DNA from: Candidatus Nomurabacteria bacterium
Lineage (GTDB): Bacteria > Patescibacteriota > Minisyncoccia > Phycocordibacterales > UBA9973
Assembly (NCBI GenBank): GCA_963842815.1
Contig: CAWJHU010000002.1
Coordinates: 44,513-108,512 of the forward strand
Reading direction: 5' to 3'
DNA length: 64,000 nt
Shown: piece by piece, positions 3,607 to 32,521 of the stretch
Layout: the number at the start of each line of letters is the position of its first letter
Numbering within the stretch: the first letter of the stretch is position 1
Notes under the pieces: model-generated
The model's input: only the letters and a program-made list of their open reading frames with translations
Told to the model about the DNA's origin: nothing
Database searches by the model: none
Position numbers and translations under genes: made by a program

Positions 3607-4635
3607 ATGTCCACAATATCATTCAAACCAAAGCAAGTCACCAAAAAAATAACTGCCCACCTTCAAGACCGCACTCGCGATGTCATTATGAATCGTTTTG
3701 GTTTGACTGTTGACGCCGAAAGGAAAACCCTTGAGGAAATAGGCAAAAAATACAATATTACCAGGGAGCGCGTCCGTCAAATTGAGGATGCAGCCTTGGC
3801 TTTAATCAAGAAATCTTCCGCCTACAAAGAGCACCAGGCGGTTTTTGACGAGCTGAAGCAGTTGATACATTCTTTGGGTTCCATTGTCGCCGAAAGCGAT
3901 CTTCTGGCTCACATTTCAAAAGATAAAAATACACAAAACCATATTCATTTTTATTTGGAGTTGGGAGACTTTTTCAAAAAACACCGCGAAGACGAATATT
4001 TTAAAACTCGCTGGAGTGTGGATGATGTGATGGCTGAAAAGGTGCATGATTCTTTAAAGAAACTTTATGCAAGTTTGAAAGACGAAGACCTTGTTTTGGA
4101 AACGGAAATGGTTAAAAAATTCCTTGACCAAATGAAAGATGTGGCGGAACAATACAAAAATGAAGAAATAGCTCGAAGATGGCTTTCCATTTCTAAAACT
4201 ATTTCCAAGAACCCGCTGGGCGAATGGGGTAAGACGAGTTCTCCGAATGTCCATACTCGCGGAGTGAAAGACTATGCTTTTTTGGTTATGAGAAAACATG
4301 GTTCGCCGATGCATTTCAGGGAAGTGGCGGATGCGATTTCAAAAACTTTCGGCCGAAAGACGCACTATGCCACTTGTCATAACGAGCTTATAAAAGATCC
4401 TCGCTTTGTTCTAGTCGGCCGTGGACTTTATGCCTTAGCTGAATGGGGATACAAGACGGGCATTGCCCGAGAAGTTATCCGAGATATTCTGAAGCGAGAA
4501 GGCCCGCTTTCAAAAGATGCCGTAGTGGAAAAAGTGATGAAAGAAAGATATTTCAAAAAGAATACTATTTTGGTAAATCTAGCAAATCCGAAATATTTCA
4601 AGAAAAACAAAAGCGGACTTTATACTTTGATTTAA
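3607..4635 (+). CDS. sigma-70 region-4 HTH protein with C-terminal HARE-HTH-like domain
   Basis: The N-terminal segment GLTVDAERKTLEEIGKKYNITRERVRQIEDAALALIKK is a sigma-70 region 4 helix-turn-helix. The C-terminal segment YAFLVMRKHGSPMHFREVADAISK...RFVLVGRGLYALAEW matches the HARE-HTH pattern. The likely start is the ATG at 3607 (MSTISFKP). The track ORF begins at a GTG at 3547. Confidence 0.55.
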   Translation: MSTISFKPKQVTKKITAHLQDRTRDVIMNRFGLTVDAERKTLEEIGKKYNITRERVRQIEDAALALIKKSSAYKEHQAVFDELKQLIHSLGSIVAESDLLAHISKDKNTQNHIHFYLELGDFFKKHREDEYFKTRWSVDDVMAEKVHDSLKKLYASLKDEDLVLETEMVKKFLDQMKDVAEQYKNEEIARRWLSISKTISKNPLGEWGKTSSPNVHTRGVKDYAFLVMRKHGSPMHFREVADAISKTFGRKTHYATCHNELIKDPRFVLVGRGLYALAEWGYKTGIAREVIRDILKREGPLSKDAVVEKVMKERYFKKNTILVNLANPKYFKKNKSGLYTLI

Positions 4636-4716
4636 ATTTAAACGAACAAAACGACCAGACAAAATCTGGTCGTTTTTTGATTTACTTTATTTGCTTTTTA
4701 TATTAAAATATAAGCA

Positions 4717-6009
4717 ATGATAGATTTGGTAATCTTTTGGCTTTACAAAATATTCCTTTTCGGGTTTTTGCCTATTGCCAGTGTGGCAATATTGGCCCGC
4801 CTCGCTTTCTTTTTTTGGGTTCACTACGTGAATACGGATTTTATTTCCGGCATTGAATGGGTTTTGCTTGAGATAATTCCTCCGCGGGACGTTCTGAGAT
4901 CTCCCAAAGCAATGGAACTTTTTATAACCAATGCCCTTTATCATTTCAGTTACAAAGGAGGACTTGAAACATATTGGCAAGGAGCGGTTTGGTTTTGGTT
5001 TTCTTTGGAAATAGTTTCCATTGACGGGCAAGTGCATTTTTATATACGCACACCTTCGCGCGTAAAAGAATTGATTGAAACTCAGATGTATGCCCAATTT
5101 CCTCAAGCACAAGTAAAAGTGGTGGAAGACTACACTCTGGCTGTCGATAAAATTGCCCCTAATAGTGTTTGGGACCTATGGGGATGTGAATTTAAATTAA
5201 CGAAACTTGATGCTTATCCTATTAAAACTTACATTGATTTTGGTTTAGATAAAGACCAAAAAGAAGAATATAAAATTGACCCCATTTCTCCGGTGATAGA
5301 ACTTTTTGGTTCCATAGGCAGAGGAGAACAAATGTGGATGCAAATTATCGTTACTCCTTCCAAAAAAGAATATCCCGAACACGCGCATTTTTGGCAAAAA
5401 ACCCATGATTGGATAAAAGAAGCTGACTTAGAAATGAAAAGATTGTTGGGTGAATTTACTCGTCAACAAGATAAAATAGAAGGAACATTTGCTAGAGCTC
5501 CTGATTATATAAGACCTTTAATAGATGGAACCAGTAAAAAAATGTTGAAAGTCGGTTTTGATACGGGGATTAGAGTATGCTATGTCGCAAAAAGAGAAGC
5601 CTTTAATGCGAACAACAAAAGAAATATGCGCTTAATTTTTCGTCAATATTCTGCCCCTTTTGTAAACGAGCTTACCCGCATAAACTCAACTCAGGCAGAT
5701 GCTTTTAGTGTGAACTTTTTTGCTTCTTTTTTTCCACTATCTAAGAAAAAAGTTATGCGCTTGTCGGACAGGATGCTTGAAGAGTACAGGGAACGGGAAT
5801 TTTTTCATCCGCCCATATATCACAGCATACACTTGCCTTGGCCTATTTCACCTATTATCTTTCCCAACTTTTTTCATCATCATATTAATGTTTTAAACAG
5901 CGAAGAATTGGCAACTCTTTGGCATTTCCCTGGCCAGATATTAAAAGTGCCTACTCTGGAACGCATAGAATCAAAAGAAGCTTCTCCTCCTACCAATTTG
6001 CCGACATAA
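4717..6009 (+). CDS. hypothetical membrane-anchored protein
   Basis: 430-aa ORF with two N-terminal TM helices and a large soluble domain. No family recognised. Confidence 0.5.
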   Translation: MIDLVIFWLYKIFLFGFLPIASVAILARLAFFFWVHYVNTDFISGIEWVLLEIIPPRDVLRSPKAMELFITNALYHFSYKGGLETYWQGAVWFWFSLEIVSIDGQVHFYIRTPSRVKELIETQMYAQFPQAQVKVVEDYTLAVDKIAPNSVWDLWGCEFKLTKLDAYPIKTYIDFGLDKDQKEEYKIDPISPVIELFGSIGRGEQMWMQIIVTPSKKEYPEHAHFWQKTHDWIKEADLEMKRLLGEFTRQQDKIEGTFARAPDYIRPLIDGTSKKMLKVGFDTGIRVCYVAKREAFNANNKRNMRLIFRQYSAPFVNELTRINSTQADAFSVNFFASFFPLSKKKVMRLSDRMLEEYREREFFHPPIYHSIHLPWPISPIIFPNFFHHHINVLNSEELATLWHFPGQILKVPTLERIESKEASPPTNLPT

Positions 6010-7439: not shown

Positions 7440-8636
7440 ATGAAGAAAAAAACAGTGTTTGTCGGACTTTCGGGTGGAGTTGATTCTGCCGTGAGTGCCG
7501 CTATTCTAAAAAAACAAGGCTATGAAGTTGTTGGCGTTTTCATCCGCACATGGCATCCGGATTTTTTGGTTTGCAATGAAGAAGAAGAGCGCCGCGACGC
7601 GATGCGCGTCGCGGCGCATTTGGATATTCCATTTTTAACTTTTGATTTTGAAAAAATTTATAAAAAAGAAGTGGCGGATTATATGATTGCCGAATATAAG
7701 GCTGGCAGAACGCCTAATCCGGATGTAATGTGCAACAAACATATTAAATTCGGCGCATTTCTCAAAAAAGCCATTTTCATGGGGGCTGATTTTGTGGCGA
7801 CAGGACATTATGCGCAAAATAAAAAGCAGATGCTTTTTCACGGCTCGCACTCGAACCTGAATGTGGTTCACGAATCTGATATTGCGTATGCCGAAAAAAG
7901 CACTGCTTTGCATTTAGCGAAAGGGATTGATCCTTCAAAAGATCAAAGTTATTTCCTTTGGACTTTAAAGCAAGAACAGCTAAAGAAAATTTTGTTTCCT
8001 ATCGGTCACCTTAAAAAAACCGAAGTCCGCAAACTGGCCAAGAAATTCAATTTGCCGGTTGCTCAGAAAAAAGACAGTCAAGGAATTTGTTTCCTAGGCG
8101 CGGTAGATCTGAAAGAATTTCTGAAACACTACATTAAAGAAAAAAAAGGGAAAGTAATAAATGAAAAAGGGGAAGAAATAGGATTACACGACGGAGTAGT
8201 TTTTCACACATTGGGAGAACGTCATGGTTTTACCATTACCCAAAAAAGTCCAAATGACGGAGCTTATTATATAGTTGGGAAAGATGCGAAGAAAAATATT
8301 TTAGTAGTATCACAGAACCCAGAGCAGCTGCTTTTTCACGGCTCGCACTCGAACCTGGATGCGGTTCACGAAACTAATATTGCGTATGCCGAAAAAAGCA
8401 CTGCTTTGTGTTCTGTAAAAATTAAAGACACAAACTGGATTTCTGAAATTCCTAAACCCGATAAAAATTATACCGCTCAGATCCGTTATCACAGTGAATT
8501 TTTACCTTGCAAAATTAAAATTATTAATAAAGCAAAAGCCAAAATATTACTTGGAAAACCGGTCCTAGTGGCTCCCGGTCAGTCCTGCGTTATTTATAAT
8601 AAAGATATTTGTTTAGGCGGAGGAGTTGTTATATAA
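7440..8636 (+). CDS. mnmA: tRNA-specific 2-thiouridylase MnmA, with two in-frame copies of an 84-bp repeat
   Basis: PP-loop SGGVDS and other conserved MnmA motifs are present. At 398 aa it is longer than typical MnmA because of two 28-aa insertions (LFHGSHSNL..VHE..IAYAEKSTAL). Confidence 0.9.
   Translation: MKKKTVFVGLSGGVDSAVSAAILKKQGYEVVGVFIRTWHPDFLVCNEEEERRDAMRVAAHLDIPFLTFDFEKIYKKEVADYMIAEYKAGRTPNPDVMCNKHIKFGAFLKKAIFMGADFVATGHYAQNKKQMLFHGSHSNLNVVHESDIAYAEKSTALHLAKGIDPSKDQSYFLWTLKQEQLKKILFPIGHLKKTEVRKLAKKFNLPVAQKKDSQGICFLGAVDLKEFLKHYIKEKKGKVINEKGEEIGLHDGVVFHTLGERHGFTITQKSPNDGAYYIVGKDAKKNILVVSQNPEQLLFHGSHSNLDAVHETNIAYAEKSTALCSVKIKDTNWISEIPKPDKNYTAQIRYHSEFLPCKIKIINKAKAKILLGKPVLVAPGQSCVIYNKDICLGGGVVI
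7827..7910 (+). repeat. 84-bp palindromic in-frame repeat element, copy 1 (inside mnmA)
   Basis: About 93% identical to the copy at 8325..8408. Internal inverted repeats are GCTTTTTCACGGC paired with GCCGAAAAAAGC, and GAACC paired with GGTTC. The length is a multiple of 3 and the element is translated as QMLFHGSHSNLNVVHESDIAYAEKSTAL. Confidence 0.75.
8325..8408 (+). repeat. 84-bp palindromic in-frame repeat element, copy 2 (inside mnmA)
   Basis: Second copy, ~500 bp downstream. It is inserted at a non-homologous position in the C-terminal domain of MnmA and translated as QLLFHGSHSNLDAVHETNIAYAEKSTAL. Confidence 0.75.
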
Positions 8637-9134: not shown

Positions 9135-10775
9135 ATGGAATCCAGTGAAATTAGGTCAAGATTTTTAAAATTTTTTGAGGCTCGCGGGCATAAAATAATT
9201 CCTTCGTCTTCCTTAATACCCGAAAATGACCCTTCGGTGCTTTTTACCACTGCCGGAATGCAGCAATTTAAAAAATATTATACTAATCCAAAAGATGCCG
9301 AAAAAGATTTTGGCAGCTTGAACGTAGCCACAATTCAAAAATGTGTCCGCACCGGAGATATTGAGGAAGTGGGGGATTCTTCGCACCTGACATTTTTTGA
9401 AATGCTGGGCAACTTTTCCTTCGGTGGCTATGGCAGAAAAGAAGCGATAGAATACGCCTATGAATTTATTGTTAAAGAACTGGGTTTAGAAATTTCTTAC
9501 GTAACGGTTCACAAGGGAAGCAAAAATGTTCCCAAAGATGAAGAATCGGAAAAAATTTGGCAGAAAATCGGAATTAAAAATATAAAAGAAGAAGGAGAAG
9601 AAGTTTTTTGGGGTCCGACGGGGGATTCTGGCCCATGTGGTCCGACCACGGAAATTTATTGTAAAAATGCAAATGATGAAGATGTTGAAATTTGGAATAT
9701 TGTTTTCAATGAATATTTCTGCGATGGTTCTCGGGAGAAATTGGATAAAGGCGAAGCAGTCCTTAAAAAGCTTAATGTTTTGGGCGTAGATACAGGAATG
9801 GGTTTTGAAAGATTGGTTTCCATAGTGCAAAAAAAGAAAAGCGTGTATGAAACGGATTTGTTTAATAATGAAAAAACGAAGGAAGAGCGTATTGTGGCGG
9901 ACCATATAAAGGCTGCACTTTTTATTATTTCAGATAAAATAATTCCTTCAAATACCGGAGCCGGATACGTTTTACGCAGATTAATTAGACGGGCAGTCAG
10001 GTTTTCCAAAGAACCGCTAGAAAAAATAATTGAAAGAAATAAAAAACTTTATGAAAAGATTTATATTCTTGACGATAGGAGAGAAATAGAAAAAGAAGAG
10101 AAAAAATTCAAGGAAACGCTTAAGCGCGGATTGAAAGAATTTGAAAAAGGCATTGACCCGTTTATTTTAGCTACTACCTACGGTTTCCCCATAGAACTAA
10201 CCCTTGAATTAGCCGAGGAAAAGGGAATAAAAATAAATCTTGAAGATTTTAATAAAAAAATGGCAGAGCACCAAAAGCTTTCCCAAACCGCATCAGCCGG
10301 AATGTTTAAAGGTGGGCTTACAGATGCCAGTGAAGAAACTAAAAAATTGCACACAGCCACGCATTTATTAAATGCAGCTCTTAGACAAGTATTGGGTTCT
10401 CATGTAATGCAAAAAGGAAGCAATATTACTGCCGAACGATTGCGTTTTGATTTTTCCCATCCGCAAAAAATGACCGAAGAAGAAAAGAAAAAAGTGGAAG
10501 AAATAGTAAATGACAAAATTGCCGAAAAATTGCCGATTAGTTTTGAGGAAATACCCAAAGCGGAAGCGGAAAAAATTGCCCTGCATTCTTTCAATGAAAA
10601 ATATGGCGAAACGGTAAAAGTTTATTCCATTGGAGACGAAAAAACAGGTTATTTCAGCCGAGAATTTTGCGGTGGTCCGCATGTGAAAAATACTTACGAA
10701 TTAGGCCATTTTAAAATTCAAAAAGAAGAAGCCGTTTCCGCAGGCGTTAGGCGCATAAAAGCCGTTCTTGAATAA
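9135..10775 (+). CDS. alaS: alanine--tRNA ligase, short form (catalytic, tRNA-recognition and editing domains; no C-Ala domain)
   Basis: The AlaRS N-terminus is FLKFFEARGHKIIPSSSLIPENDPSVLFTTAGMQQFK. The editing-domain motifs HTATHLLNAAL and CGGPHV are present. The protein ends after the editing domain at 546 aa, versus ~870 aa for canonical AlaRS. Confidence 0.85.
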   Translation: MESSEIRSRFLKFFEARGHKIIPSSSLIPENDPSVLFTTAGMQQFKKYYTNPKDAEKDFGSLNVATIQKCVRTGDIEEVGDSSHLTFFEMLGNFSFGGYGRKEAIEYAYEFIVKELGLEISYVTVHKGSKNVPKDEESEKIWQKIGIKNIKEEGEEVFWGPTGDSGPCGPTTEIYCKNANDEDVEIWNIVFNEYFCDGSREKLDKGEAVLKKLNVLGVDTGMGFERLVSIVQKKKSVYETDLFNNEKTKEERIVADHIKAALFIISDKIIPSNTGAGYVLRRLIRRAVRFSKEPLEKIIERNKKLYEKIYILDDRREIEKEEKKFKETLKRGLKEFEKGIDPFILATTYGFPIELTLELAEEKGIKINLEDFNKKMAEHQKLSQTASAGMFKGGLTDASEETKKLHTATHLLNAALRQVLGSHVMQKGSNITAERLRFDFSHPQKMTEEEKKKVEEIVNDKIAEKLPISFEEIPKAEAEKIALHSFNEKYGETVKVYSIGDEKTGYFSREFCGGPHVKNTYELGHFKIQKEEAVSAGVRRIKAVLE

Positions 10776-10796
10776 TTTTAATAAATATGGTAGAAT
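10768..10796 (+). promoter_or_regulatory. promoter (TTGAAT, 17-nt spacer, TAGAAT) predicted to give a leaderless transcript
   Basis: The -10 element ends 6 nt before the ATG at 10803, so the predicted transcription start coincides with the start codon. Confidence 0.5.
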
Positions 10797-10802: not shown

Positions 10803-12635
10803 ATGGAAAATGATTTTTTAAAAAAGAAATATGACCTGCATAATTCACCGGAAGTCAAATCATCGGCTAAAAGAACAGAATCAAGAACCGGCGAAAAAGT
10901 GCCGCAAAATCCAAGCGAGCAGATTCAGAACTACCTTAATCGATTCAGGGAAATTATAGACCGCAAAGATCCCGAACAAAGAGAGCAGGGCATGGAAGCC
11001 CTAAAGAAAGTTTTATACGATAAATTTATTATTAAGCCGGAAGAAATTCCAGAATCATATTTTGAAAATCAAAAAAGAATTGCTCGGGAACAAGGGCATG
11101 GCGATATAGAAATTACAGATGAAATACGTAACCAGCTTACGGAAGTAATAATTTCCGACCAGCAAAGTACCCTGAATAATTGGATTGACTATCTTTCTTC
11201 GCCCGATGCCGCCTATCCCGATTGGCTCAAATATTATGCCTTCAGGAGCATTCTCGGGATGGGCGCTTATGATAAAGAAAAGAAAGAATTTGCCAAAAGA
11301 TCTAAGGGAACTACAAAACCATTTCCGGACATTAACCGCGAGGCTCTAGCCTATGTTTTGGATGCCATTTCCCAAAAATACGGCAAACATCACGTTGATT
11401 TGCTGGCCCTGGAACCGGAAGAGAAAAAGGAATTTGAAAAACTTTTGGAAGGAGAAAATTTTTCCAAACTTTACGCTTGGGCGCTTGATAAAACAGCCAT
11501 TGCTCCGACGGAATCTTTGGAAAAAGTAGCCGGCAGATGGATAAAATATCCCCAAAATTCTGACCACGCGCCTTTAGTTGAGTCCCTTCAGGGTTATGGC
11601 ACTGGCTGGTGCGTGGCTGGAGAATCCGTAGCTAAAAACTATTTGGAGCTTGGAGATTTTTATATTTATTATTCCATTGATAAAAAAGGCAAACCAACTA
11701 TTCCAAGAGCTGCAATTCAGATGAATGGAAACCAAATTGGCCAAGTTCGCGGAGTTGCCCCCGAACAAAATCTGGACCCGTATATTGGCAGCGTGGTGCA
11801 GGAAAAGCTCAAAGAATTTCCCGATGGAAAAGCTTATGAGAAAAAAGTTGGGGATATGAAAATTCTGACTGCCATTGAAAATAAAATCAAAAAAGGAATT
11901 GAGCTTTCTAAAGAAGACCTTACTTTCATTTACGAAATCAACACAACCATTGAAGGTTTCGGTTATCAGCGCGACCCGCGTATTGCTGAACTGCGAGCTG
12001 GGAGAAATGTTAAACAAGATGCAGTAATTATTTTTGAATGCGCTGAAAATCAAATTGCTTACAATATAAATGAGGTAAATAAAAACACCAAAGCATATGT
12101 CGGGAAATGGAGTCCGGAAATTATGAAGAAACTTCCTAAAAATATTGAGCATCTTTATGAATCATTTCCGGAGAAGAAGATATTTCAAAAAACTATTGAA
12201 CTCACGACTAAAACTCCCAAAGAATACGCGCAAGAACTGATTTCCCAAGGGTATAAAATATCGAATTGGGCTCAAGATATTTTAAATAAAATAGAATCAC
12301 TTAAACAAAAAGAAGAGATAGACTTAGTATCATTTTCCGTGGAACAACTTGGGTTCCCGAATGGCGCCACATTGCAAGAAATATATGATAGGGCAAAAGA
12401 ATTTAAGTTAGAACTTTGTCCGTCACAAGCTGGTCCCGAACTTCGTTTGAATTACAAAGACCAGCCTAATGGCGAATATTTAAAAGTCGCGATGGAACCA
12501 ATTAACGACCGTGATGGCGACCCGGGCTTGTTCGGGGTGGACCGCGGCGGCTCCGAGTCGTGGCTCAGCGGCGGCGATGGCGGGCTGGGCGGTTGGGGTG
12601 GCGGCGATCGTTTCGTCTTTCGTTTCCGCAAGTAA
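10803..12635 (+). CDS. hypothetical protein; putative DGR target with C-terminal variable region (CLec/FGE-like tail)
   Basis: 610-aa ORF. The C-terminus ...DRGGSESWLSGGDGGLGGWGGGDRFVFRFRK overlaps a repeat whose second copy lies downstream with adenine-specific differences. Confidence 0.7.
   Translation: MENDFLKKKYDLHNSPEVKSSAKRTESRTGEKVPQNPSEQIQNYLNRFREIIDRKDPEQREQGMEALKKVLYDKFIIKPEEIPESYFENQKRIAREQGHGDIEITDEIRNQLTEVIISDQQSTLNNWIDYLSSPDAAYPDWLKYYAFRSILGMGAYDKEKKEFAKRSKGTTKPFPDINREALAYVLDAISQKYGKHHVDLLALEPEEKKEFEKLLEGENFSKLYAWALDKTAIAPTESLEKVAGRWIKYPQNSDHAPLVESLQGYGTGWCVAGESVAKNYLELGDFYIYYSIDKKGKPTIPRAAIQMNGNQIGQVRGVAPEQNLDPYIGSVVQEKLKEFPDGKAYEKKVGDMKILTAIENKIKKGIELSKEDLTFIYEINTTIEGFGYQRDPRIAELRAGRNVKQDAVIIFECAENQIAYNINEVNKNTKAYVGKWSPEIMKKLPKNIEHLYESFPEKKIFQKTIELTTKTPKEYAQELISQGYKISNWAQDILNKIESLKQKEEIDLVSFSVEQLGFPNGATLQEIYDRAKEFKLELCPSQAGPELRLNYKDQPNGEYLKVAMEPINDRDGDPGLFGVDRGGSESWLSGGDGGLGGWGGGDRFVFRFRK
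12503..12632 (+). repeat. DGR-like variable repeat (VR) at the 3' end of the target gene
   Basis: It aligns with 13008..13140. There are 24 substitutions, all at positions where the downstream copy has A (23 A to G, 1 A to C). There is one 3-nt indel. Confidence 0.7.
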
Positions 12636-13007
12636 CTTAGAACTCAGACACTTAAGCACTTGGAATTTTACTCTTTGATTCTTGTGTCCTTTGACCTTTT
12701 TTCTTTTTTAATTTTTTTAAATAAAAATGATATACTTAATATGGGTAAGGTGAATATGCGAGCGGTCAAGACTTCTCGGTGCCTAACCTAGTATCCATAT
12801 ATCGAGAATATCCACGGCTAAGGCTTTGGGTAGAGTGGTATATACAGAAACTTCATCCTTCAATAAAACTCAGGATGATCCTGAGCGGAGTCGAATGGAT
12901 CAAAAAATGAAGATACTTGGTGTGCGATACTGGTGCATTTAAGATGCAAAATAAAATTCAATCTTTGGAACAATCTGGGGATGGTGACATAGATGGTATT
13001 GCATACA

Positions 13008-13140
13008 TAACGACCGTGATAGCAACCCGAACTTGTTCAAGGTGAACCGCAACGGCTCCGAGTCGTGGCTCAACAACGACAATGGCAGGCTGGACAATCA
13101 TTGGAATGGCGACAATCGTTTCGTCTTTCGTTTCCGAAAA
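13008..13140 (+). repeat. DGR-like template repeat (TR), non-coding, AAC-rich
   Basis: No ORF covers it. It is rich in AAC codons in the frame corresponding to the VR (…NDRDSNPNLFKVNRNGSESWLNNDNGRLDNHWNGDNRFVFRFRK). A GC hairpin terminator follows. Confidence 0.7.
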
Positions 13141-13151
13141 TCTCTTCTTTT

Positions 13152-13186
13152 CCGCGCTTATTTATTAGGCGCGGTTTTTCTTTTTA
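13152..13186 (+). terminator. rho-independent terminator after the TR
   Basis: CCGCGC, an 11-nt loop, then GCGCGG, followed by TTTTTCTTTTT. Confidence 0.5.
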
Positions 13187-13237
13187 ATTGAATTTCAAAT
13201 ACTGTCTTTTTTATGGATTATTTTGTATAATTAAATT

Positions 13238-14413
13238 ATGGGAATCTTTTCTGGGAAAAAAGAAGAAAAGAAACTAGCACTGGTCTTTGATCTTGGCTCT
13301 TCCTCTGTCGGAGGCGCAGTTTTTGAGATGGAAAAATCCGGAACCCCTAAAATAATTTTATCTATTCGTGAACCCATAATTCTTGAAGAAAAATTTAATG
13401 AGGCCCGTTTTCTGTTTCTGTCCCTCAAATCTCTTGATGTGGTGGCCGGCAAAATATGTAGAATGGGTATCGGGAAGCCAGCCAGGATTTTTTGCGTTCT
13501 TTCTTCGCCCTGGTATGCTTCCCAAACCAGGATTATCAAACTTGAAAAGAATGTACCATTTTTATTTACCTCAAAATTGGCCGATGAGCTGATTAAAAAA
13601 GAAATCAGCCTTTTGGAGGAAGAACATTTAGCCAAATTTTCGCAAACGCATGATAAAATTCGTCCCATTGAATTTAAAAATGTAAAAATCATGCTGAATG
13701 GCTATCCGACCTCTGCCCCTTTTGGTAAAAAAACTAAAACCCTTGAAATGATTATTTTTGTTTCCATGAGCAGCGAGCAGGTATTAAAAAAAATAGAAGA
13801 TACTATTTTCAAACATTTTCATTCCAAAGATATAAAATTTTCTTCTTTTGCCATGGCCTCTTTTACGGTGGCCCGAGATATGTTTGCTAAACAGGAGAGC
13901 TTTCTTTTGGTTGATATCGGCGGAGAAATGACGGATATTTCCATGATAAAAAAAGACATATTGAGCAATTCCATTTCATACCCTCTGGGGCCTAATTTTA
14001 TGGTGCGCGGATTGGCTAATAGTCTCAATTGCATTTTGAGCGAAGCAAAATCTTTAATTTCTCTTTATAGAGATGAACATGCTTTGGAGTCCACCAAGAA
14101 AAAACTTGACCCGATTATAAATAAATTAAAAACAGAATGGCTGAATGAATTTCAAAAATCTTTAAAAAATCTTTCAAGTAATATTTCTGTTCCGGCCACT
14201 ATTTTTGTAACCGTAGACCAGGATTTGGCTGATTTTTTCTCAAAAATTATCAAGGCGGAACAATTTGGCCAAAATATTTTAACCGCATCGGAATTTAAAA
14301 TAATTGTTTTAGACCCCCAAACGCTTCATGGCATTACTCTTTTTAAAGATAATGTTAATCGCGACCCGTTTCTTATTATTGAATCCGTTTATATTAATCG
14401 CTTTATTTGCTAA
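13238..14413 (+). CDS. actin-like ATPase, PilM/FtsA-like
   Basis: N-terminal LALVFDLGSSSVGGAVFE (phosphate-1-like) and a later LLVDIGGEMTDIS (phosphate-2/adenosine-like). 391 aa. Confidence 0.5.
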   Translation: MGIFSGKKEEKKLALVFDLGSSSVGGAVFEMEKSGTPKIILSIREPIILEEKFNEARFLFLSLKSLDVVAGKICRMGIGKPARIFCVLSSPWYASQTRIIKLEKNVPFLFTSKLADELIKKEISLLEEEHLAKFSQTHDKIRPIEFKNVKIMLNGYPTSAPFGKKTKTLEMIIFVSMSSEQVLKKIEDTIFKHFHSKDIKFSSFAMASFTVARDMFAKQESFLLVDIGGEMTDISMIKKDILSNSISYPLGPNFMVRGLANSLNCILSEAKSLISLYRDEHALESTKKKLDPIINKLKTEWLNEFQKSLKNLSSNISVPATIFVTVDQDLADFFSKIIKAEQFGQNILTASEFKIIVLDPQTLHGITLFKDNVNRDPFLIIESVYINRFIC

Positions 14414-15684
14414 AATATATTTATATGTCAAGACATTTATTACAAGATATGGTAAAAGTAAAAACTTCTCAGCCCATCTCCATAAAAGTTGTCAGGGATG
14501 AGAAGGGAGAAGAAAGAATCCCCGACAAAATAAAAAAAACCAACAAAAGCTCAAAATACAGGATTTATTTTGTCGCATTAATTTCCATTGTTTTTCTCCT
14601 TTTTGCTTTTTCTTTTTTATTTTCCGGAGCGAAAATTACCATAACCCCCAAAGTGCAGGAAATTCCTTTGGCCAATGAAAATTTGTCCGCCATTAAGGAT
14701 TCAAATACCCAGGATTTATCTTTTGACCTGGTGATGATTCCCGGGGAAGAAAATAAGACAATTCAGGGAGGGGAAGTAAAAGATGTGGCCATAGCTGCCA
14801 CGGGGACCGTCATTATTTATAATGCTTATAACTCTTCTCCCCAAAATCTTGATATAGATACCCGCCTGGAAGGTTCAAATGGAAAAATTTATAAAACAAA
14901 TAAAAAAATAACCGTACCGGGAATAACCAATGATGGTAAACCCGGAAGCGTGGAAGTGGGCATTTACGGAGCGGGAACCGGTGAAGGATATAACAGCGCT
15001 CCGCTTGATTTTAAGATTTTCGGTTTCAAGGGAACGCCCAAATATTCCAAGTTTTACGGAAGGTCCGAAGGAGATATTACCGGCGGGTTTACGGGAAAGT
15101 CTCCGGTTGTTTCTTCTCTGGATAAAACAACAGCGGTAAGCGAGCTTAAAGCTAAATTGGAAACGGATTTGCTGAATAAAATAACGGGCCAGATTCCGGC
15201 GGGGTTTATTTTATTTAAAGACGCGATATTTACCAGTATTGCCGACAAAGATATCAGTTTTACTCCCGACAAAGACAATACGATGTTAGCGGACGTCAAA
15301 GGCACGCTCTATGGATTTATTTTTAACGAGAAAAAACTGACGGCAAAACTAGCGGCGGATCTGATTGATAAATATGACGGAAGCGAAGTTTACATACAGA
15401 ACATTCAAGATTTGACTTTTTCTCTGGCCAATAAAGATACTGTTTCTTTTGCGGATGTGACGAATATAAATTTCAGCCTGTCGGGTACTCCTAAAATTGT
15501 TTGGAAAGTTGACGAGGCAAAATTTATTAATGATATATTAGGTAAGAAAAAAACGGATTTTAATCAAATTTTAGCGCAATATCCCAGCATTGATACCGCC
15601 CAGCTGGTCATTCGTCCTTTCTGGAAATCTTCTTTTCCGGATAAAAGCAGCGCCATCCAAGTCATCGTGAATTATCCGAAATAA
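14407..15684 (+). CDS. membrane-anchored protein (possible PilN/PilO-like partner of the preceding ATPase)
   Basis: Single N-terminal TM helix followed by a Thr/Gly-rich beta-type extracellular region. It overlaps the upstream gene by 7 nt. Confidence 0.35.
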   Translation: MLKYIYMSRHLLQDMVKVKTSQPISIKVVRDEKGEERIPDKIKKTNKSSKYRIYFVALISIVFLLFAFSFLFSGAKITITPKVQEIPLANENLSAIKDSNTQDLSFDLVMIPGEENKTIQGGEVKDVAIAATGTVIIYNAYNSSPQNLDIDTRLEGSNGKIYKTNKKITVPGITNDGKPGSVEVGIYGAGTGEGYNSAPLDFKIFGFKGTPKYSKFYGRSEGDITGGFTGKSPVVSSLDKTTAVSELKAKLETDLLNKITGQIPAGFILFKDAIFTSIADKDISFTPDKDNTMLADVKGTLYGFIFNEKKLTAKLAADLIDKYDGSEVYIQNIQDLTFSLANKDTVSFADVTNINFSLSGTPKIVWKVDEAKFINDILGKKKTDFNQILAQYPSIDTAQLVIRPFWKSSFPDKSSAIQVIVNYPK

Positions 15685-19550: not shown

Positions 19551-19982
19551 ATGGATAAAGAAAAGAAAACAACCAAAGAAAAATATATTGAAGCAATAGG
19601 TAGAAGAAAAACTTCTACGGCCCGAGTGCGCATTTGGATATCGGCCAAACATAGTTTTATCGTTAACGGCAAAGACGCCAAAGATTATTTCAAAACCGAA
19701 GAGGAGCGCTGTTTGGTTTCCGACCCTCTCGTAAAAGGCATTGGCGGAACAGAAAAAACAGAACATAAATGGAAAGTGGAGGTAAAAGTTCAAGGCGGAG
19801 GAGTGCATTCCCAAGCGGAAGCCGTCCGTCATGGTTTGGCTCGCGCTTTGGTCTCATCCGACATTGAATTACGGCACAAAATGAAAACTTTAGGCTTCCT
19901 AAAACGTGACCCTCGCGCCAAAGAACGAAGAAAATTCGGACTCAAGAAAGCCCGCAAGGCGCCACAGTGGAGTAAACGCTAA
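19551..19982 (+). CDS. rpsI: 30S ribosomal protein S9
   Basis: YIEAIGRRKTSTARVRI...GGGVHSQAEAVRHGLARALV...KRDPRAKERRKFGLKKARKAPQWSKR. Confidence 0.92.
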   Translation: MDKEKKTTKEKYIEAIGRRKTSTARVRIWISAKHSFIVNGKDAKDYFKTEEERCLVSDPLVKGIGGTEKTEHKWKVEVKVQGGGVHSQAEAVRHGLARALVSSDIELRHKMKTLGFLKRDPRAKERRKFGLKKARKAPQWSKR

Positions 19983-20093
19983 AAACTCAAGAACAATGTT
20001 TTTAAAGGGTTTGGCGAGCGACGGCGAGCCAATTTCAGGATTTTTAAGCTTCAAAAAATCCGTACCGGCAAAAATATTTGTTCTTGAGTTTTT
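19981..20093 (-). repeat. intergenic repeated element, copy 1 (inverted-repeat-flanked, AAGCTT-loop hairpin inside)
   Basis: 16-bp terminal inverted repeats are AAAAACTCAAGAACAA and TTGTTCTTGAGTTTTT. The interior, read in reverse complement, aligns with 49140..49215. Shared stretches include GGTACGaATTTTTcGAAGCTTgAAAA, GGCTCG...AAACCC...AAAAA and CTGAA. Confidence 0.55.
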
Positions 20094-20131
20094 TGTTTTT
20101 TATTTTTTAGAGTTTATGCTAATATATTTAT

Positions 20132-20728
20132 ATGTCAGACGAAAAGGAAGAAAAACCAGAAATTTCCGAGCCCAAAGAAGACGAATCGGAAGTTCTGGAA
20201 TTTGAATTCAATGAAGATGGCGAAGAAGATTTGAAAAAGACCCTAAAAAAACTCAGGGCCGATTTAAAAGCGTGCAAAGCTGAAAAAGAAGAATACCTGA
20301 CTGGCTGGCAGAAAGAACGGGCGGATTTTGCCAATTATAAAAAACAGGAAGAAGACAGAAAAACAAATTTCTCGGAAGTTATCCGGGAACGCATCATTAC
20401 CAGGTTTTTAAGCGTTCTGGACAGTTTCAATATGGCCTTTGCCAACAAAGAAGCTTGGGAAAAAGTGGATGAAAATTGGCGTAAGGGTGTGGAATATATT
20501 TATGCCCAGATAAATACTATTTTTGAAGAATATGGCGTAAAAGAAATAGGAGAAGTGGGGGAAAGTTTTGACCATAATATCCATCAATCCATAGAAATGG
20601 TGCCGACCGATAAAAAAGAAGACAATCACAAAATAGCGCAAGTTATTCAAAAAGGGTACAAATTAGGCGACCGGGTCATCCGGGCTGCTCGGGTAAATGT
20701 TTTTGAGTATGATGAATCAACAAACTAA
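20132..20728 (+). CDS. grpE: nucleotide exchange factor GrpE
   Basis: Acidic coiled-coil N-terminus. The C-terminal beta domain includes KGYKLGDRVIRAARVNV. Confidence 0.88.
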   Translation: MSDEKEEKPEISEPKEDESEVLEFEFNEDGEEDLKKTLKKLRADLKACKAEKEEYLTGWQKERADFANYKKQEEDRKTNFSEVIRERIITRFLSVLDSFNMAFANKEAWEKVDENWRKGVEYIYAQINTIFEEYGVKEIGEVGESFDHNIHQSIEMVPTDKKEDNHKIAQVIQKGYKLGDRVIRAARVNVFEYDESTN

Positions 20729-22418
20729 ACAATGCCAAAACTGCAAAAAAGATTTCACGATAGAAGTGGAAGATTTTAATTTCTATGAAAAAATAAAAGT
20801 TCCTCCGCCGACTTTTTGTCCGGAATGTCGTCTTATACGTCGTCTTGTTTGGCGTAACGAACATTCTCTTTTCAAGAGACCAAATGCGGAAGAGGGAAAG
20901 AAAGATTTAATCATTTCTGTTTTCCATCCTGACGCAAATGTAAAAACTTACGATAAGGAAATGTGGTGGAGCGACAAATGGGATTCGTGTCAGTACGGCA
21001 GGGATTATGATTTTAATAAACCGTTTTTTGAGCAATTCAAAGAGTTGATGCAAGAGGTTCCGCACTTGGCCTTATCCGATTCAAGGTCTGTTGATTCTCG
21101 GTTTTGTAATCTTACGGTAGAAATGAAAAATTGCTATTTAGTTACTGCCGCCTGGACTTGTGAAGATTCAATGTATTCCAACAGATTAGTTACATGTAAA
21201 TTTACTCATGATTCATATATTTGTTACAACACAGAATTTGCGTATGAAAATGTGTATTGTCGCGACTCCAGCAGATTGTTTTTCTCTTTGGAAAGCGAAG
21301 GATGTATGGATTCTTATTTTCTATACGACTGTCGTAATTGCTCTAACTGTATTTTGTGTTCCAATCTAAGAAATAAAAATTATTGCATTGAAAATATTCA
21401 GTATGCCAAAGAAGATTATTTGAAAAAGAAAGAAGAACTTTTCTTAAATACACGAAGCGGCATAGAAGAAGCCAGAATAAAATTTGAAAAATTATGGAGA
21501 AATGCATTTCATCGCGATTTGAAGCTTATAAATACGATAAATGTGGTTGGTGACCATGTATACAATTCTCGTAATTGCTATGAGGTTTTTGATATTGACG
21601 GAGAATATGAAAATGTTAAATATGCCAACTGGGGCAGTTCAGGGCTTCGCGATTCGTATGATGTTGGTCCAGGAGCCGGAGGCAATTCCGAGCTTACCTA
21701 TGAAGGCATAAGCATAGGCGTGAACAATAGCAGATGCTTTTTGGGCGCAATCATTTGGTATTCAAATGAGGTTTTATACAGCTTTATGATGAACAACTGC
21801 CAGAATTGCTTCGGCTGTACTGAAATGAATGGCAAAAAATATTGTATTTTAAATAAACAATATACCAAAGAAGAATATGAAAGACTGCTTCCAAAAATCA
21901 AACAGCATATGAAAGATATGCCATATAAGGATAAACAAGGAAGAGTCTATGGATTTGGCGAATTTTTTCCGCCGGAACTTTCACCTTTTGCCTATAACGA
22001 GACAATCGCGCAGGATTATTTTCCCACAGATAAGGAAACGGCTGAGTCAAAAGGATTTTTATGGCGCGAAAATATTTCGGGTTCATATAAAATAACCCAA
22101 AAGGGGAAAGATTTACCGCAAACTATTTTAGAAGTGAAAGACTCTATTTTAGATGAAGTTATCGAATGTGAAATCACCGGCAAACCTTTTAAAATTATTG
22201 AGCAAGAGCTCAATTTTTATAGAAGATTCAATCTGCCTCTTCCGTCGGTTCATCCCGACGAACGCCACAATAGGCGCCTGAAATTCCGCAATCCTGTAAT
22301 GTTAAACAAAAAGCAATGCTTTTTTGGAGACAAAGAAATTATTACCACTTATCCTCCGGAACCGATAGGCCCGAGGAAAGTGCTTTGCACGGAGCATTAT
22401 AAACAAGAAATTTATTAA
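20709..22418 (+). CDS. cysteine-rich multi-zinc-ribbon repeat protein, paralog 1
   Basis: N-terminal segment CQNCKKDFTIEVEDFNFYEKIKVPPPTFCPECRLIRRL. Internal repeats have the pattern CxxCxxCxxC-x8-YC...QY.KEEY. A C-terminal zinc-ribbon-like segment follows. The probable start is at 20709 or 20712 (MMNQQTKQC); the track start at 20697 overlaps grpE. Confidence 0.6.
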   Translation: MMNQQTKQCQNCKKDFTIEVEDFNFYEKIKVPPPTFCPECRLIRRLVWRNEHSLFKRPNAEEGKKDLIISVFHPDANVKTYDKEMWWSDKWDSCQYGRDYDFNKPFFEQFKELMQEVPHLALSDSRSVDSRFCNLTVEMKNCYLVTAAWTCEDSMYSNRLVTCKFTHDSYICYNTEFAYENVYCRDSSRLFFSLESEGCMDSYFLYDCRNCSNCILCSNLRNKNYCIENIQYAKEDYLKKKEELFLNTRSGIEEARIKFEKLWRNAFHRDLKLINTINVVGDHVYNSRNCYEVFDIDGEYENVKYANWGSSGLRDSYDVGPGAGGNSELTYEGISIGVNNSRCFLGAIIWYSNEVLYSFMMNNCQNCFGCTEMNGKKYCILNKQYTKEEYERLLPKIKQHMKDMPYKDKQGRVYGFGEFFPPELSPFAYNETIAQDYFPTDKETAESKGFLWRENISGSYKITQKGKDLPQTILEVKDSILDEVIECEITGKPFKIIEQELNFYRRFNLPLPSVHPDERHNRRLKFRNPVMLNKKQCFFGDKEIITTYPPEPIGPRKVLCTEHYKQEIY

Positions 22419-22485
22419 TTCGTAATTTTATAATTTTGTGTTATAGTAAAAATAAGGCAGAAATGTCTTATTTTGTTTATATGGT

Positions 22486-22561
22486 CCCGTTAGAAATAGG
22501 AAATCAAAGATTTCCGTTAAACTAACAGGATTCGTATTATTTAGTATTAATTTCTAACGGG
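22486..22561 (+). promoter_or_regulatory. nested hairpins sequestering the start region of the ABC transporter gene
   Basis: Outer 12-bp stem pairs CCCGTTAGAAAT (22486..22497) with ATTTCTAACGGG (22550..22561) and ends 1 nt before the ATG at 22562. Inner hairpin is GGAAATC-aaa-GATTTCC (22499..22515). Confidence 0.3.
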
Positions 22562-24337
22562 ATGGCAAAGGATTATACAAATATACACCGAGGATTGGTG
22601 TTTAAATATTTCTGGCAAGTCATCAGGCATTTCAAGGTGTCTTTTTTTACCATTATTATTTGTACGACAATCGCATCGATACTCGATATTTATATTCCGT
22701 TTCAATACCTGAATCTCTGGAATGTTTTAAGCGCGAATAATTTTTCCGTTATGCCGATTGCTCAATCGATAATCATTATGGTTTTGATACTAAACTTGGT
22801 TCGCTGGGTTATCCGCCGAACTTCAGGTTTTTCTACTTCATATTTTGAATCGGCAGTGATGACCGGTCTTCGCAACCAAGCTTTTTCCTATATGATAGGC
22901 CATTCGCATTCTTTCTTTGCAAATAATTTCGGAGGGTCTTTAACGCGAAAAATAACTAAATACGCCAGAGCTTTTGAAAAAATAGCGGACAGAATGATTT
23001 TTGACGGATTGCCGCTTTTGGTCAGAAGTGTGGGAACAATCGTCGCCATATATGCGCTGTTGCCGAAATACGCTTATATTATGGGAATATTTTGCTTGGC
23101 ATTTCTAGCGACAGCTTTCTTTTATATTAGTCGCAAATTGAAATACGATATTATCGCCGCAGAGGCCGACACCAAAACGACAGGCGTGTTGTCCGATGCC
23201 ATAGGCAATCATTCTTCTATTCAATTATTTACCGGACATGAAAATGAAATAGATCGTGTTGAAGATATGACAAGGAAACAGCACAAAGCGACTCTTTTCA
23301 ATTGGTATTTATGGGAAGGCCTGGGCGCTGTCCAAAGTTTTTATATGGTTGCTGTTGAATTTATTATTTTCTGGGTAGCCCTTAAGGATTGGCAATTATC
23401 TCTCATTACTCTGCCGATAATAGTTTTATTGCAAAGTTATTTGATTCGCTTAGCTGATAATTTGTGGAGTTTCGGCGGAATTGTTCGAACATATTATGAA
23501 AGTTTTGCCGATGCGCAAGAAATGGCTCTTGTTCTTGACACGCCTTATGAAATTGTCGACAAGTATACGAAAACAGCTGATAATATAAAAGGAAAAATTG
23601 TTTTTGAAAAAGTGACTTATTTCTATAAAAACAACGACAATAAAGTATTGGATAATTTTTCGTTGACCATCCCGAGCGGGCAGAAGATAGCCATCGTCGG
23701 TCCTTCCGGCGCAGGCAAAACGACTTTTGTCAGACTTCTAATGAGAATGTTTAATTTAACTAGCGGCAAGATTACCATAGATGGAATAGATATCAGTGAA
23801 ATTTCTCAAAAGAATCTTCGCGAACAAATATCTTTCGTTCCGCAAGATCCTGTACTTTTTCATCGCACCTTGATTGAAAATATACGTTATGGCAGACGCG
23901 ATGCCACAGATGAAGAAGTGAAAAAGGCAGCGCATTTGGCGCACTGTGATGATTTTATCGATAAATTACCTTATGGTTATGAAACATACGTAGGGGAACG
24001 CGGAGTGAAGCTTTCCGGCGGTGAACGCCAGCGCGTCGCTATCGCTCGCGCGATTTTAAAAAACGCGCCGATACTTATTTTAGACGAGGCGACTTCTTCA
24101 CTCGATTCTAATTCCGAACATTTGATTCAAGACGCGCTTACAAAATTAATAGCAGGGAAGACGACTATAGTCATTGCCCACAGGCTTTCGACCATCAGGC
24201 AGATGGATAGGATTATCGTGATAAGAGACGGAAAAATCACAGAAGATGGAACGCACGATGAACTTGTTAATAAAAAAGATGGAGTTTATAAAAAACTTTG
24301 GGATTTACAAGCGGGTGGTTTTAGAAAAGTTATTTAA
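22562..24337 (+). CDS. ABC transporter, fused permease/ATP-binding exporter (MsbA-like)
   Basis: Six N-terminal TM helices. Walker A GPSGAGKTT, signature LSGGERQRVAIARA, and Walker B ILILDEATSSLD. Confidence 0.88.
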   Translation: MAKDYTNIHRGLVFKYFWQVIRHFKVSFFTIIICTTIASILDIYIPFQYLNLWNVLSANNFSVMPIAQSIIIMVLILNLVRWVIRRTSGFSTSYFESAVMTGLRNQAFSYMIGHSHSFFANNFGGSLTRKITKYARAFEKIADRMIFDGLPLLVRSVGTIVAIYALLPKYAYIMGIFCLAFLATAFFYISRKLKYDIIAAEADTKTTGVLSDAIGNHSSIQLFTGHENEIDRVEDMTRKQHKATLFNWYLWEGLGAVQSFYMVAVEFIIFWVALKDWQLSLITLPIIVLLQSYLIRLADNLWSFGGIVRTYYESFADAQEMALVLDTPYEIVDKYTKTADNIKGKIVFEKVTYFYKNNDNKVLDNFSLTIPSGQKIAIVGPSGAGKTTFVRLLMRMFNLTSGKITIDGIDISEISQKNLREQISFVPQDPVLFHRTLIENIRYGRRDATDEEVKKAAHLAHCDDFIDKLPYGYETYVGERGVKLSGGERQRVAIARAILKNAPILILDEATSSLDSNSEHLIQDALTKLIAGKTTIVIAHRLSTIRQMDRIIVIRDGKITEDGTHDELVNKKDGVYKKLWDLQAGGFRKVI

Positions 24338-24835
24338 AAAAGCTGAATTTGTTTCTGGATCAAGCTTGTCGGTGACTATTATCATCAGCTCGGTGCCGAG
24401 TCCTAAATCTTTTTTGATATTTGTAAAAAGATGTTCATAAGGAAAAGGGGAGATCCAGACTGTATTTTTTATGCAAGTGAAATCCGCTTTTTTCAAAAGA
24501 TAGCGCAAAGCCTCGCGCTCGCCTTTTCTTTCTTCCGGAATATCTAAAATTATAATTCTCCAAAGACCATCCCAAGCGGTGGAAACCAATACACCCTCAC
24601 CTTCGAGTTTTAGAGTATTTAATTTATTCTTGCCCTTTTTTGTCAGTTTCAAATAACTTTTATTGTCGGACTGAATCATTTCTACATGGCCTGATTCCAC
24701 TAGATTTTTTATGGAACGGGTGAGAGCATATCCTGTTTTTTGGTCTTTACTAGCCTTTATTAAATCTAAAGGAATAGCTGGCTTTTCGGCTAAAATTTTA
24801 AGTATTTTATTAGAATATTCCTGTTTCCTTAACAT
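24305..24835 (-). CDS. winged-helix transcriptional regulator (PaaX-like)
   Basis: An N-terminal wHTH (ILKILAEKPAIPLDLIKASKDQKTGYALTRSIKNLVESG) is followed by a C-terminal domain DGLWRIIILDIPEE...REALRYLL...TVWISP resembling PaaX_C. The likely start is the internal Met (MLRKQEY). It overlaps the ABC gene 3' end convergently. Confidence 0.4.
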   Translation of the reverse strand: MLRKQEYSNKILKILAEKPAIPLDLIKASKDQKTGYALTRSIKNLVESGHVEMIQSDNKSYLKLTKKGKNKLNTLKLEGEGVLVSTAWDGLWRIIILDIPEERKGEREALRYLLKKADFTCIKNTVWISPFPYEHLFTNIKKDLGLGTELMIIVTDKLDPETNSAFLNNFSKTTRL

Positions 24836-24961
24836 AACCCATATATTATAACATATACTGTCTTTTGACAAGTATTTAGCGGTCGCAAAAAACTTGCAAA
24901 ATATTTTAAATGGGTGTAATATCAATTAAATTAGCTCTTTTCTAAAAACACGCATAAAATT

Positions 24962-25000: not shown

Positions 25001-25060
25001 AATGTTTTTATAAAAGACTAATTTAATTTCTATTAATTATTAATAATTTTTTAAAAGAAC

Positions 25061-27155: not shown

Positions 27156-27161
27156 TTACTT

Positions 27162-29144: not shown

Positions 29145-29147
29145 CAA

Positions 29148-30893: not shown

Positions 30894-30896
30894 CCT

Positions 30897-32516: not shown

Positions 32517-32521
32517 AAATT

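Follow-up and report, generated by a model that had tools for sequence, protein, structure and literature searches.

A probable Patescibacteria diversity-generating retroelement with target gene and template RNA gene and without avd or reverse transcriptase in cis

In a 64-kb stretch of the Candidatus Nomurabacteria bacterium contig CAWJHU010000002.1, which is called the window in what follows, the gene of a 610-residue protein ends in a variable repeat (VR), and a near-copy of this repeat, the template repeat (TR), follows downstream in non-coding DNA. To judge from sequence comparison, the pair almost certainly belongs to a diversity-generating retroelement (DGR) of Patescibacteria, of which the target gene and the gene of the template RNA are present, and both the accessory gene avd and the reverse transcriptase (RT) gene are missing in cis. 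The VR in its present form was written from the TR of the window by a DGR event. With regard to the missing enzyme, we incline, somewhat cautiously, towards a recent loss of avd and RT that has left the VR frozen. A preliminary description of this DNA had noticed the repeat pair and had considered two traits to be at odds with a textbook DGR, the absence of an RT and the near-exclusive exchange of A for G. Both traits are real, and both turn out to be less exotic than had been implied, as is discussed below.

Evidence for mutagenic copying comes from the differences between the two repeats, which were compared in a formal local alignment (12470-12660 versus 12980-13170) with a curated recount, the single indel being placed such that CAT at 13099-13101 forms an extra codon of the TR. 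Among the 36 adenines of the TR, 24 are altered in the VR, 23 of them to G and one to C (13137/12629), and the remaining 12 are unchanged. The non-A positions that differ number 0 of 94 (Fisher p = 1.4e-17). Hence, all 24 substitutions fall on TR adenines, where Roux et al. 2021 (PMC8144416) ask for at least 75% of the differences in a DGR, and because of this mismatch pattern we ascribe the VR to a copying event of the RT-Avd type with the TR as its template. The adenine-only differences, the additional CAT and all example strings of the preliminary description were thus correct; it had also rightly called the non-A positions identical, though its figure of about 85 for their number was too low. 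Non-A mismatches at a comparable rate, which it had named as the observation that would speak against a DGR, are absent from the formal alignment.

As in other DGRs, the VR occupies the C-terminal end of a coding gene and the TR is non-coding. No open reading frame (ORF) of at least 60 aa covers the TR on either strand, and its frame has no ATG, such that the non-coding nature claimed for it previously stands. A second feature of DGRs is found at the 3′ end of the repeats, where VR and TR have in common a 21-nt block without adenine, with divergence starting at 12629/13137, an arrangement known from the initiation of mutagenic homing elements (IMH/IMH*). The corresponding 3′ blocks of related loci are likewise free of adenine. 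By analogy to IMH/IMH* (Wu et al. 2018, PMC5758913), the block may form an IMH-like boundary of mutagenesis.

The TR of the closest relative, a locus designated L084, has these adenines as well, from which it follows that the TR is ancestral and the VR derived. The TR has the length that is typical of the family, so that the absence of the CAT codon from the VR is due to a deletion there; TR/VR length differences of such a class are found in ~7% of DGRs (Wu et al. 2018, PMC5758913). The window contains a single VR and a single TR (the 20-mer CGTTTCGTCTTTCGTTTCCG is found twice at up to three mismatches, where no occurrence is expected), and their GC contents are 69% and 50%, respectively, as compared to 38% for the window as a whole. 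Between 10438 and 15869, the window does not differ from an independent Logan assembly (L001) of run ERR10755942, which argues that the RT-less junction is not peculiar to a single assembly; the two agree base for base in the non-coding TR, too.

The target protein belongs to a family with more than 2,050 homologues of ~610 aa, which are 55-71% identical to it and, where named, come from Parcubacteria or Patescibacteria. Throughout the family, a hypervariable C-terminal tail is found on a C-type-lectin-like domain, and the last ~45 residues are a fixed scaffold (ITDxDGxPxVFxLxRxxDGLWLxxxWAxPxxxWxPxxxFVFRLRK) whose x positions vary freely. The protein has no match in Pfam, NCBIfam, PADLOC or among PDB sequences; Sdh5 was a recurrent match, yet with a best E of 0.005 it was far below the cut-off and was rejected as noise. 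Structure prediction with AlphaFold2 (AF2) gave a full-length model with a pLDDT of 80.8, and residues 470-610 modelled alone reached a pLDDT of 93 and a pTM of 0.87. This domain model matches almost only structures with the C-type-lectin fold, including enzymes of the formylglycine-generating enzyme (FGE) type and the Treponema DGR protein TvpA. The predicted structure therefore agrees with the C-type-lectin/FGE-like variable tail that had been proposed, and the variable residues would sit on a C-type-lectin fold, as is characteristic of DGRs. Because neither a hydrophobic segment nor a signal-like N-terminus was found (no signal peptide or transmembrane segment is predicted, and the highest 19-residue Kyte-Doolittle mean is 0.68), the protein is probably cytoplasmic.

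The assignment to DGRs receives its clearest support from related loci, in which the same target gene, spacer and TR adjoin a textbook RT and bAvd, just as one would wish for the DGR-type reading of the preliminary description. We compared 80 loci from species-representative genomes and a further 4 that were obtained via exact-protein look-ups. A TR-like copy of the target 3′ end with mainly adenine-specific differences is present in about 45 of the 80, usually 280-380 nt after the stop codon and on the same strand, and an intact DGR RT (LGNLTSQ…YADDF) lies within 1.5 kb of the TR in 31 loci. The usual layout is target with VR (+), a non-coding RNA domain of ~300 nt, TR (+), a 9-bp stem-loop with a T-run, avd (-) and RT (+). 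Avd has ~115 aa and is encoded on the opposite strand between TR and RT (46 profile matches); it corresponds to PF22296 (bAvd) and to NF033474 (E = 2.9e-15). The RT has ~350 aa and carries the LGNLTSQ and YADD motifs. L084, which is 71% identical, has the full cassette, with avd at 3729-4070 and RT at 4081-5124, and its adenines were replaced by 11 G, 2 C and 5 T.

Neither of the two proteins was found in the window. A profile of 31 DGR RT sequences from the relatives had no match at E<=1 in the six-frame translation of the 64 kb, a scan for RT motifs found none, Pfam gave no RVT_1 on 35 large ORFs, and an Avd profile built from 46 relatives likewise remained without a match. Hence, two features of DGRs with architecture B, a DGR-clade RT near the TR and an accessory Avd, are both absent within 64 kb. 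The statement of the preliminary description that the window has no RT or avd is borne out in this way, and the RT with an [I/V/L]GxxxSQ-type motif for which it had suggested a search is found, along with bAvd, at the homologous loci and nowhere in the window.

What the window does have is the gene of the DGR RNA. The space between VR and TR very likely holds a conserved structured RNA, as judged by covariation among the relatives, and the copy in the window appears intact. A DNA profile of this domain that was built without the window matches it at 12747-12862 (E 1.9e-17) and 12895-12989 (E 1.7e-13), split by a lineage-specific hairpin, and nowhere else in the 64 kb. The aligned spacers share a TATACT/TATAAT box, blocks such as ACTTGGT and AAATAAAATWCA, and a series of helices. 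RNAalifold on 12 sequences of the window's subtype proposes 46 pairs, 37 of them with compensatory changes. In the alignment, 93.6% of the cells are paired; controls with shuffled columns reach 72%, and those with slid partners 39-46%. Double-change cells number 128 as against at most 30 in the slid controls. The window retains 43 of the 46 pairs, and RT-linked relatives retain 42-46. Transcription would start downstream of the TATACT/TATAAT box, from which we place the start of the RNA; a consensus scan found no -35 match upstream of it. An avd reading frame in the VR-TR spacer, as in BPP-1, was considered and rejected, since no consistent ORF is found in 37 loci.

At the other end of the RNA gene, every TR of the relatives is followed by a GC-rich stem-loop and then by GGTTTTTCTTTT, with the 3′ end of avd (minus strand) directly behind; the stem covaries over ~35 relatives. 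In the window, the sequence after the stem-loop leads instead into an ftsA/pilM-like gene at 13238. The preliminary description had labelled this hairpin a GC terminator. Its nine pairs are there, and we replace the label by that of a conserved element of the DGR RNA, which by analogy would be a putative Avd-binding stem-loop and/or a terminator. Handa et al. (bioRxiv 10.1101/2023.10.23.563531) described an Avd-binding stem-loop just 3′ of the TR, most commonly of 9 bp, and reported putative stem-loops of this kind in 207 of 278 Avd-type DGRs, including those of the Candidate Phyla Radiation (CPR). They also found that the Bordetella TR requires flanking RNA, which wraps RT-Avd.

The RNA domain has no counterpart in Rfam at gathering score, where the window and 15 relatives gave tRNAs only. 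The sole Rfam match at E<=10 or E<=1 was between the window hairpin at 12802-12858 and the first hairpin of RT-7 (RF03028), with loop and flanks in common (AGA.U / AAGGC / AGAGUG). Membership in RT-7 is not supported at 23.4 bits against a gathering score of 116.8 and with 141 of 191 model positions skipped, and seven relatives scanned at E<=1 had no RT-n match. The likeness hints that RT-7 might be the RNA of a related DGR class, at a score far below the threshold and in the window but not in these seven relatives.

Loss or decay of avd and RT is a recurrent event in the target family, which makes the RT-less state of the window less singular than it had seemed. L023 and L054 have retained the TR, and avd and RT are absent from the ~9 kb downstream; L026 and L027 have fragments of avd only, and the TR mismatches of L027 are mostly at non-A positions; the RT of L028 is broken into three frames and that of L013 is truncated; and in L082 (P0005) and many others the cassette is missing altogether. 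Where a TR-bearing locus had sufficient flank, an intact RT was found in cis in ~26 cases and was missing in ~6, i.e., in about one in six.

We would reconstruct the history of the window as follows. In complete relatives, a small RNA gene would be transcribed on its own, from the -10 box through the 5′ domain of ~240 nt, the TR and the 9-bp stem-loop to a U-tract, with RT-Avd encoded directly downstream, first avd on the opposite strand and then RT. RT-Avd would copy the TR into cDNA and misincorporate opposite adenines, mostly dC, which leads to A>G, and the cDNA would then take the place of the VR, with which the 610-aa target gene ends, thereby changing ~15 surface residues of the C-type-lectin-like domain. 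In the window, target gene, RNA gene, TR and stem-loop are intact and the avd-RT module is gone, and the element has most likely been stranded since a recent deletion. Any such loss must be recent, since VR and TR have no non-A differences and the RNA domain keeps almost all of its pairs, whereas it has eroded to 25 of 46 pairs in L023 and 35 of 46 in L054, both of which are RT-less. That the VR is one codon short of the TR and of the family length also speaks for a stranded element.

Several observations weigh against a stranded element, and they bring in the explanation that comes closest to it, which we regard as possible, though the less probable of the two: an active split DGR in which a free-standing RNA gene beside its target is served in trans by an RT-Avd whose genes lie at a distance of more than 50 kb or belong to a different replicon. 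RNA domain, -10 box, AAC/AAT-rich TR and 9-bp stem-loop look fully functional, and the absence of non-A differences between TR and VR is equally expected if the RNA is in use. The DGR RNA seems to be a self-contained transcription unit, convergent with avd in the relatives, which would make service in trans mechanistically easy, and its 5′ domain is conserved family-wide and hence recognisable by a paralogous RT-Avd. Genomes with a second cassette exist, as L077 has two RT-avd cassettes (12511-13656 and 19571-20644) inside 10 kb, and targets remote from the rest of the system are known from other DGRs (Wu et al. 2018, PMC5758913). Furthermore, our searches for RT and Avd covered 64 kb of a 126-kb contig.

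Against service in trans stands, to begin with, the lack of either protein in these 64 kb. The best 120 of more than 8,000 homologues (E<1e-30) of the nearest relative's RT include none on a contig of 126,032 bp, the length of the source contig, which is a weak negative. The RT adjoins its TR in all 31 RT-bearing relatives, and a demonstrably remote RT is found in no relative. In the remote arrangements known so far, TR and RT stay together and the VR alone is distant; service in trans at this locus would require the reverse. Finally, there is no sign of VR variants, in that the 90% cluster of the target protein has a single member in a collection of 15 billion proteins. A degenerate VR/TR pattern with adenines as N gave 0 matches in JGI metagenome contigs, the source sample being from ENA/Logan and not from JGI.

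The probability that remains after a recent loss and service in trans goes to a module that was without an RT of its own from the outset at this site, or to some other history. The target and the RNA gene may have moved alone, and this would weigh against a loss in situ. As to gene order, the ftsA/pilM-like gene and its neighbours come immediately behind the alanyl-tRNA synthetase gene (AlaRS) in L037 and L062; in L020 and in the window, the target gene lies between them. The target-plus-RNA module is therefore an insert in a conserved block of housekeeping genes, relative to which it has moved.

In this context, the nearly pure A>G exchange deserves consideration, as it had led to the suggestion of an inosine-like process. 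In the relatives (39-41 loci), A>G accounts for 59-61% of the adenine substitutions, and C and T for ~20% each, with heterogeneity among loci above chance (chi-square p = 0.007). Given this spectrum, 23 G among 24 substitutions have a probability of 1.2e-4 (plain binomial) or 1.2e-3 (fitted beta-binomial). The fraction of changed adenines (0.75) is close to the maximum in the family, which spans 0.22-0.76 (median 0.55). Classically, misincorporation has been viewed as roughly equal (Roux et al. 2021, PMC8144416), and for the Bordetella DGR in E. coli a dominant dC misincorporation was reported in most contexts, which "primarily resulted in A-to-G transition" (bioRxiv 10.1101/2025.08.18.670894). 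We thus see the excess in the window as the extreme end of a family-wide preference, ordinary in its direction and unusual in its purity. This purity might stem from an enzyme peculiar to the lineage, from dNTP pools or from selection for Gly/Asp/Ser. A link between RT loss and the G bias was also considered and is unsupported, since the pooled RT-less relatives have 38 G of 57, compared to 59% overall.

Some different chemistry, for instance one in which the TR RNA (or DNA) undergoes A-to-I deamination and is then copied faithfully, or an editing process independent of an RT, seems very improbable to us. It could draw on the 23 A>G exchanges, on a pattern of only ~1e-3 probability even under the overdispersed family spectrum, on the lack of an RT in the window, and on the similar spectrum of the RT-less L023 (19 G, 2 C, 0 T). 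However, the single A>C is not a product of deamination, and the locus is homologous over its full length to ordinary RT-Avd loci with mixed spectra, such as L084. A>G is the majority class across the family and reaches 17 of 22 in L052 and 15 of 20 in L078, which both have an RT; the changed-adenine fraction stays inside the family range; and no deaminase is seen beside the locus, where AlaRS, the FtsA-like gene and an ORF at 14407-15684 without a Pfam match are found. As A>G is common to the family and is reported for the Bordetella RT as well, the bias that had been noticed is real, and an inosine-like process is not needed for it.

Least credible of all, and next to impossible in our estimate, is an origin unrelated to retroelements, be it as diverged paralogous tails, a G>A-hypermutated duplicate or an assembly artefact, because despite a TR frame that is open for ~45 codons (though lacking a start codon) and a simple direct duplication at a distance of 505 bp, ordinary divergence would strike all bases, the TR adenines represent the ancestral state, a conserved structured RNA occupies the spacer next to the TRs of ~45 loci, and two assemblies agree base for base. 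AT-biased decay of the TR or cytosine deamination as the source of the A/G differences was rejected as well, given that C>T is absent in the downstream copy.

How does the element compare to known DGRs? Those of CPR bacteria form a clade of their own, DGR clade 2 (Roux et al. 2021, PMC8144416), and 90% of them have architecture B3, the B subtypes differing in how avd and TR are ordered and oriented (Wu et al. 2018, PMC5758913). Our family resembles them in that its members come from Patescibacteria/Parcubacteria and have a C-terminal VR, an AAC-rich TR, adenine-specific differences and an A-free 3′ block, and in that a small Avd and an RT of ~350 aa lie beside the TR of the relatives; the window differs by having neither avd nor RT. 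The order in the relatives, target (+), RNA/TR (+), avd (-) and RT (+), was set against B3 by its text description only. The target family, which has no Pfam domain, could not be matched to any of the categories that Wu et al. 2018 (PMC5758913) name.

With BPP-1 (mtd-avd-TR-brt), the locus shares structured RNA flanking the TR, adenine mutagenesis, a C-terminal VR on a C-type-lectin fold, a predominance of A>G in cells, and a stem-loop just after the TR, comparable to the Avd-binding stem-loop. The proportion of substituted adenines is ~50% in BPP-1 (PMC6182149), versus a median of 55% in the family and 75% in the window. However, avd of BPP-1 is encoded between VR and TR on the same strand, whereas that of the relatives is on the opposite strand and after the TR, and the VR-TR space of the window is a dedicated non-coding RNA domain of ~240 nt. 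The flanking RNA of BPP-1 consists of the 3′ end of avd and a 140-nt spacer before brt, while here only ~10 nt and one hairpin follow the TR. In addition, the GC-rich cruciform after the VR is not evident in the window, where short direct repeats are found instead (see below).

Among the 'RT' motifs, structured RNAs beside bacterial RT genes to which RT-7 belongs (Weinberg et al. 2017, PMC5737381), RT-10 is located in the TR-brt spacer of BPP-1; the window RNA has a hairpin that resembles the first one of RT-7, and as a whole it falls outside the RT-7 family. DGRs with non-adjacent targets (45 of 372; Wu et al. 2018, PMC5758913), including those of Treponema denticola, Legionella and others, have the TR with the RT and additional VRs elsewhere, whereas in the window the TR is with the VR and it is the RT that would be remote.

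The locus therefore belongs to a well-known system, be it as a stranded member or as one that is served from afar, and reveals no new mechanism. It adds little to DGR biology as such, since the abundance of DGRs in the CPR is an established fact and stranded cassettes are to be expected as a by-product. More is to be gained from its parts. The target represents a very large, unannotated and apparently cytoplasmic family of Patescibacteria (>2,000 members) whose lectin-like tail is diversified across lineages, which raises the question of its ligand. The DGR RNA would be a discrete gene with a 5′ domain of ~240 nt that has strong covariation and no Rfam family, and it offers a comparative counterpart to the structure of the Bordetella ribonucleoprotein. 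Furthermore, DGR finders that are anchored on the RT miss orphan TR loci of this kind, which make up some one-sixth of the TR-bearing loci sampled here. Such orphan loci constitute a natural series for asking how long TR/VR and RNA survive without the enzyme, or whether they are served in trans. Should the split DGR turn out to be true, it would reverse the remote-target arrangement, with the RNA alone defining the 'address' of the DGR and an enzyme whose spectrum is nearly pure A>G.

Table 1. Features of the DGR locus and of the genes on either side of it (window positions)
Feature	Position	Strand	Basis or remark
AlaRS gene	9135-10775		Pfam; upstream neighbour of the target gene
Promoter-like site, TTGAAT-17-TAGAAT with upstream TG	10768..10796	+	consensus scan, 9/12 matches
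DGR target gene, 610 aa	10803..12635	+	member of Patescibacteria family
C-terminal domain, residues ~470-610, predicted C-type-lectin-like fold, bears the variable residues	12210..12632	+	AF2 model
Variable repeat (VR)	12503..12632	+	last 130 nt of ORF 10803-12635; substituted positions 12516-12632
A-free block TCGTTTCGTCTTTCGTTTCCG, IMH-like boundary of mutagenesis (putative)	12608..12628	+	3′ end of VR, same in TR at 13116-13136
TATACT/TATAAT box, likely -10 of the DGR RNA gene	12731..12736	+	near-invariant columns, 34 aligned loci
Structured 5′ domain of the DGR RNA (predicted), ~10 helices	12747..12989	+	DNA profile and covariation
Lineage-specific extra hairpin in the RNA domain	12868-12885	+	splits the profile match
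Template repeat (TR)	13008..13140	+	non-coding, rich in AAC/AAT codons; similarity to VR flank extends to 13146
9-bp GC-rich stem-loop, then TTTTTCTTTT	13152..13184 (stem-loop 13152-13174)	+	conserved 3′ element of the DGR RNA
ftsA/pilM-like gene	13238-14413		Pfam FtsA-like; directly after T-run, own promoter region

The site upstream of the target gene had been described as a strong promoter for a leaderless transcript. It is indeed there, and what supports it is a match to the consensus, with no evidence of function, so that we list it as a possible promoter; because its -10 hexamer ends 7 nt before the ATG, a leaderless target mRNA is conceivable.

Directly after the stop codon of the target gene, between 12650 and 12700 (+), there are 3-4 copies of a CTTTGA-like octamer as direct repeats, which are also present in most relatives. 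Their consensus in alignment A2 is CTTTGAnnCTTTGACnCTTTGA, and copies in the window are found at 12673 and 12688. They occupy the site at which Bordetella has its IMH-flanking cruciform, and no hairpin is evident there; by this analogy, they are possibly a homing-site or protein-binding element. A role as -35 element was rejected, as the repeats are ~40 nt from the -10 box and at a variable distance.

Further arrangements were seen among the relatives. In six of them (L021, L028, L051, L060, L063 and L068), the RNA-TR-avd-RT cassette is inverted with respect to the target and lies 1.3-2.2 kb off; since the RNA domain is always co-oriented with the TR in these loci, the cassette behaves as one module. 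The RT-bearing L085 (2271-2413, protein P0004) has a 1-nt deletion in the VR relative to the TR, which causes a frameshift and an aberrant C-terminus (…GGVTALGLSSSLASNT), an example of either a damaging retrohoming product or a later mutation. In L006, a perfect 180/180 repeat of the target 3′ end (11700-11879 and 14806-14985) is accompanied by a second, identical RNA domain (11968-12189 and 15074-15295, 3.1 kb apart). Either the locus underwent a tandem duplication not long ago, or the repeat arose in the assembly.

Otherwise, the window has the content of an ordinary chromosome, with genes for BipA, a sigma factor, YceG, MnmA, AlaRS, DnaK/J, CysRS, DnaB, FtsW, MurG, GltX and PBP2. The mnmA ORF (7440-8636) contains two 94%-identical elements of ~86 nt (7825-7910 and 8323-8408) with terminal inverted repeats (AGCAGaTGCTTTTTC…GAAAAAAGCACTGCT). 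One of them interrupts the HUP domain, and the second separates the PRC-barrel from the C-terminal domain. Both leave the frame open, and no additional copies are present in the 64-kb window. They look like in-frame palindromic insertion elements and recall the palindromic elements of Rickettsia.

A cluster further downstream consists of three paralogous genes of ~575 aa (20697-22418, 29148-30893 and 33221-34942; repeat families D1-D4, 64-82% DNA identity), which are interleaved with two VirD4/TrwB-like coupling-protein ATPases (27162-29144 and 30981-32516), with DnaK and DnaJ among them; some genes of the cluster (20697-34942) carry a treble-clef zinc finger (zf_Tbcl_2). Lastly, a Schlafen-group-3 helicase fused to a LexA-like Peptidase_S24 domain (45345-47663) adjoins a DUF3800 protein on the other strand (47847-48653), and the two may constitute a defence or stress module.

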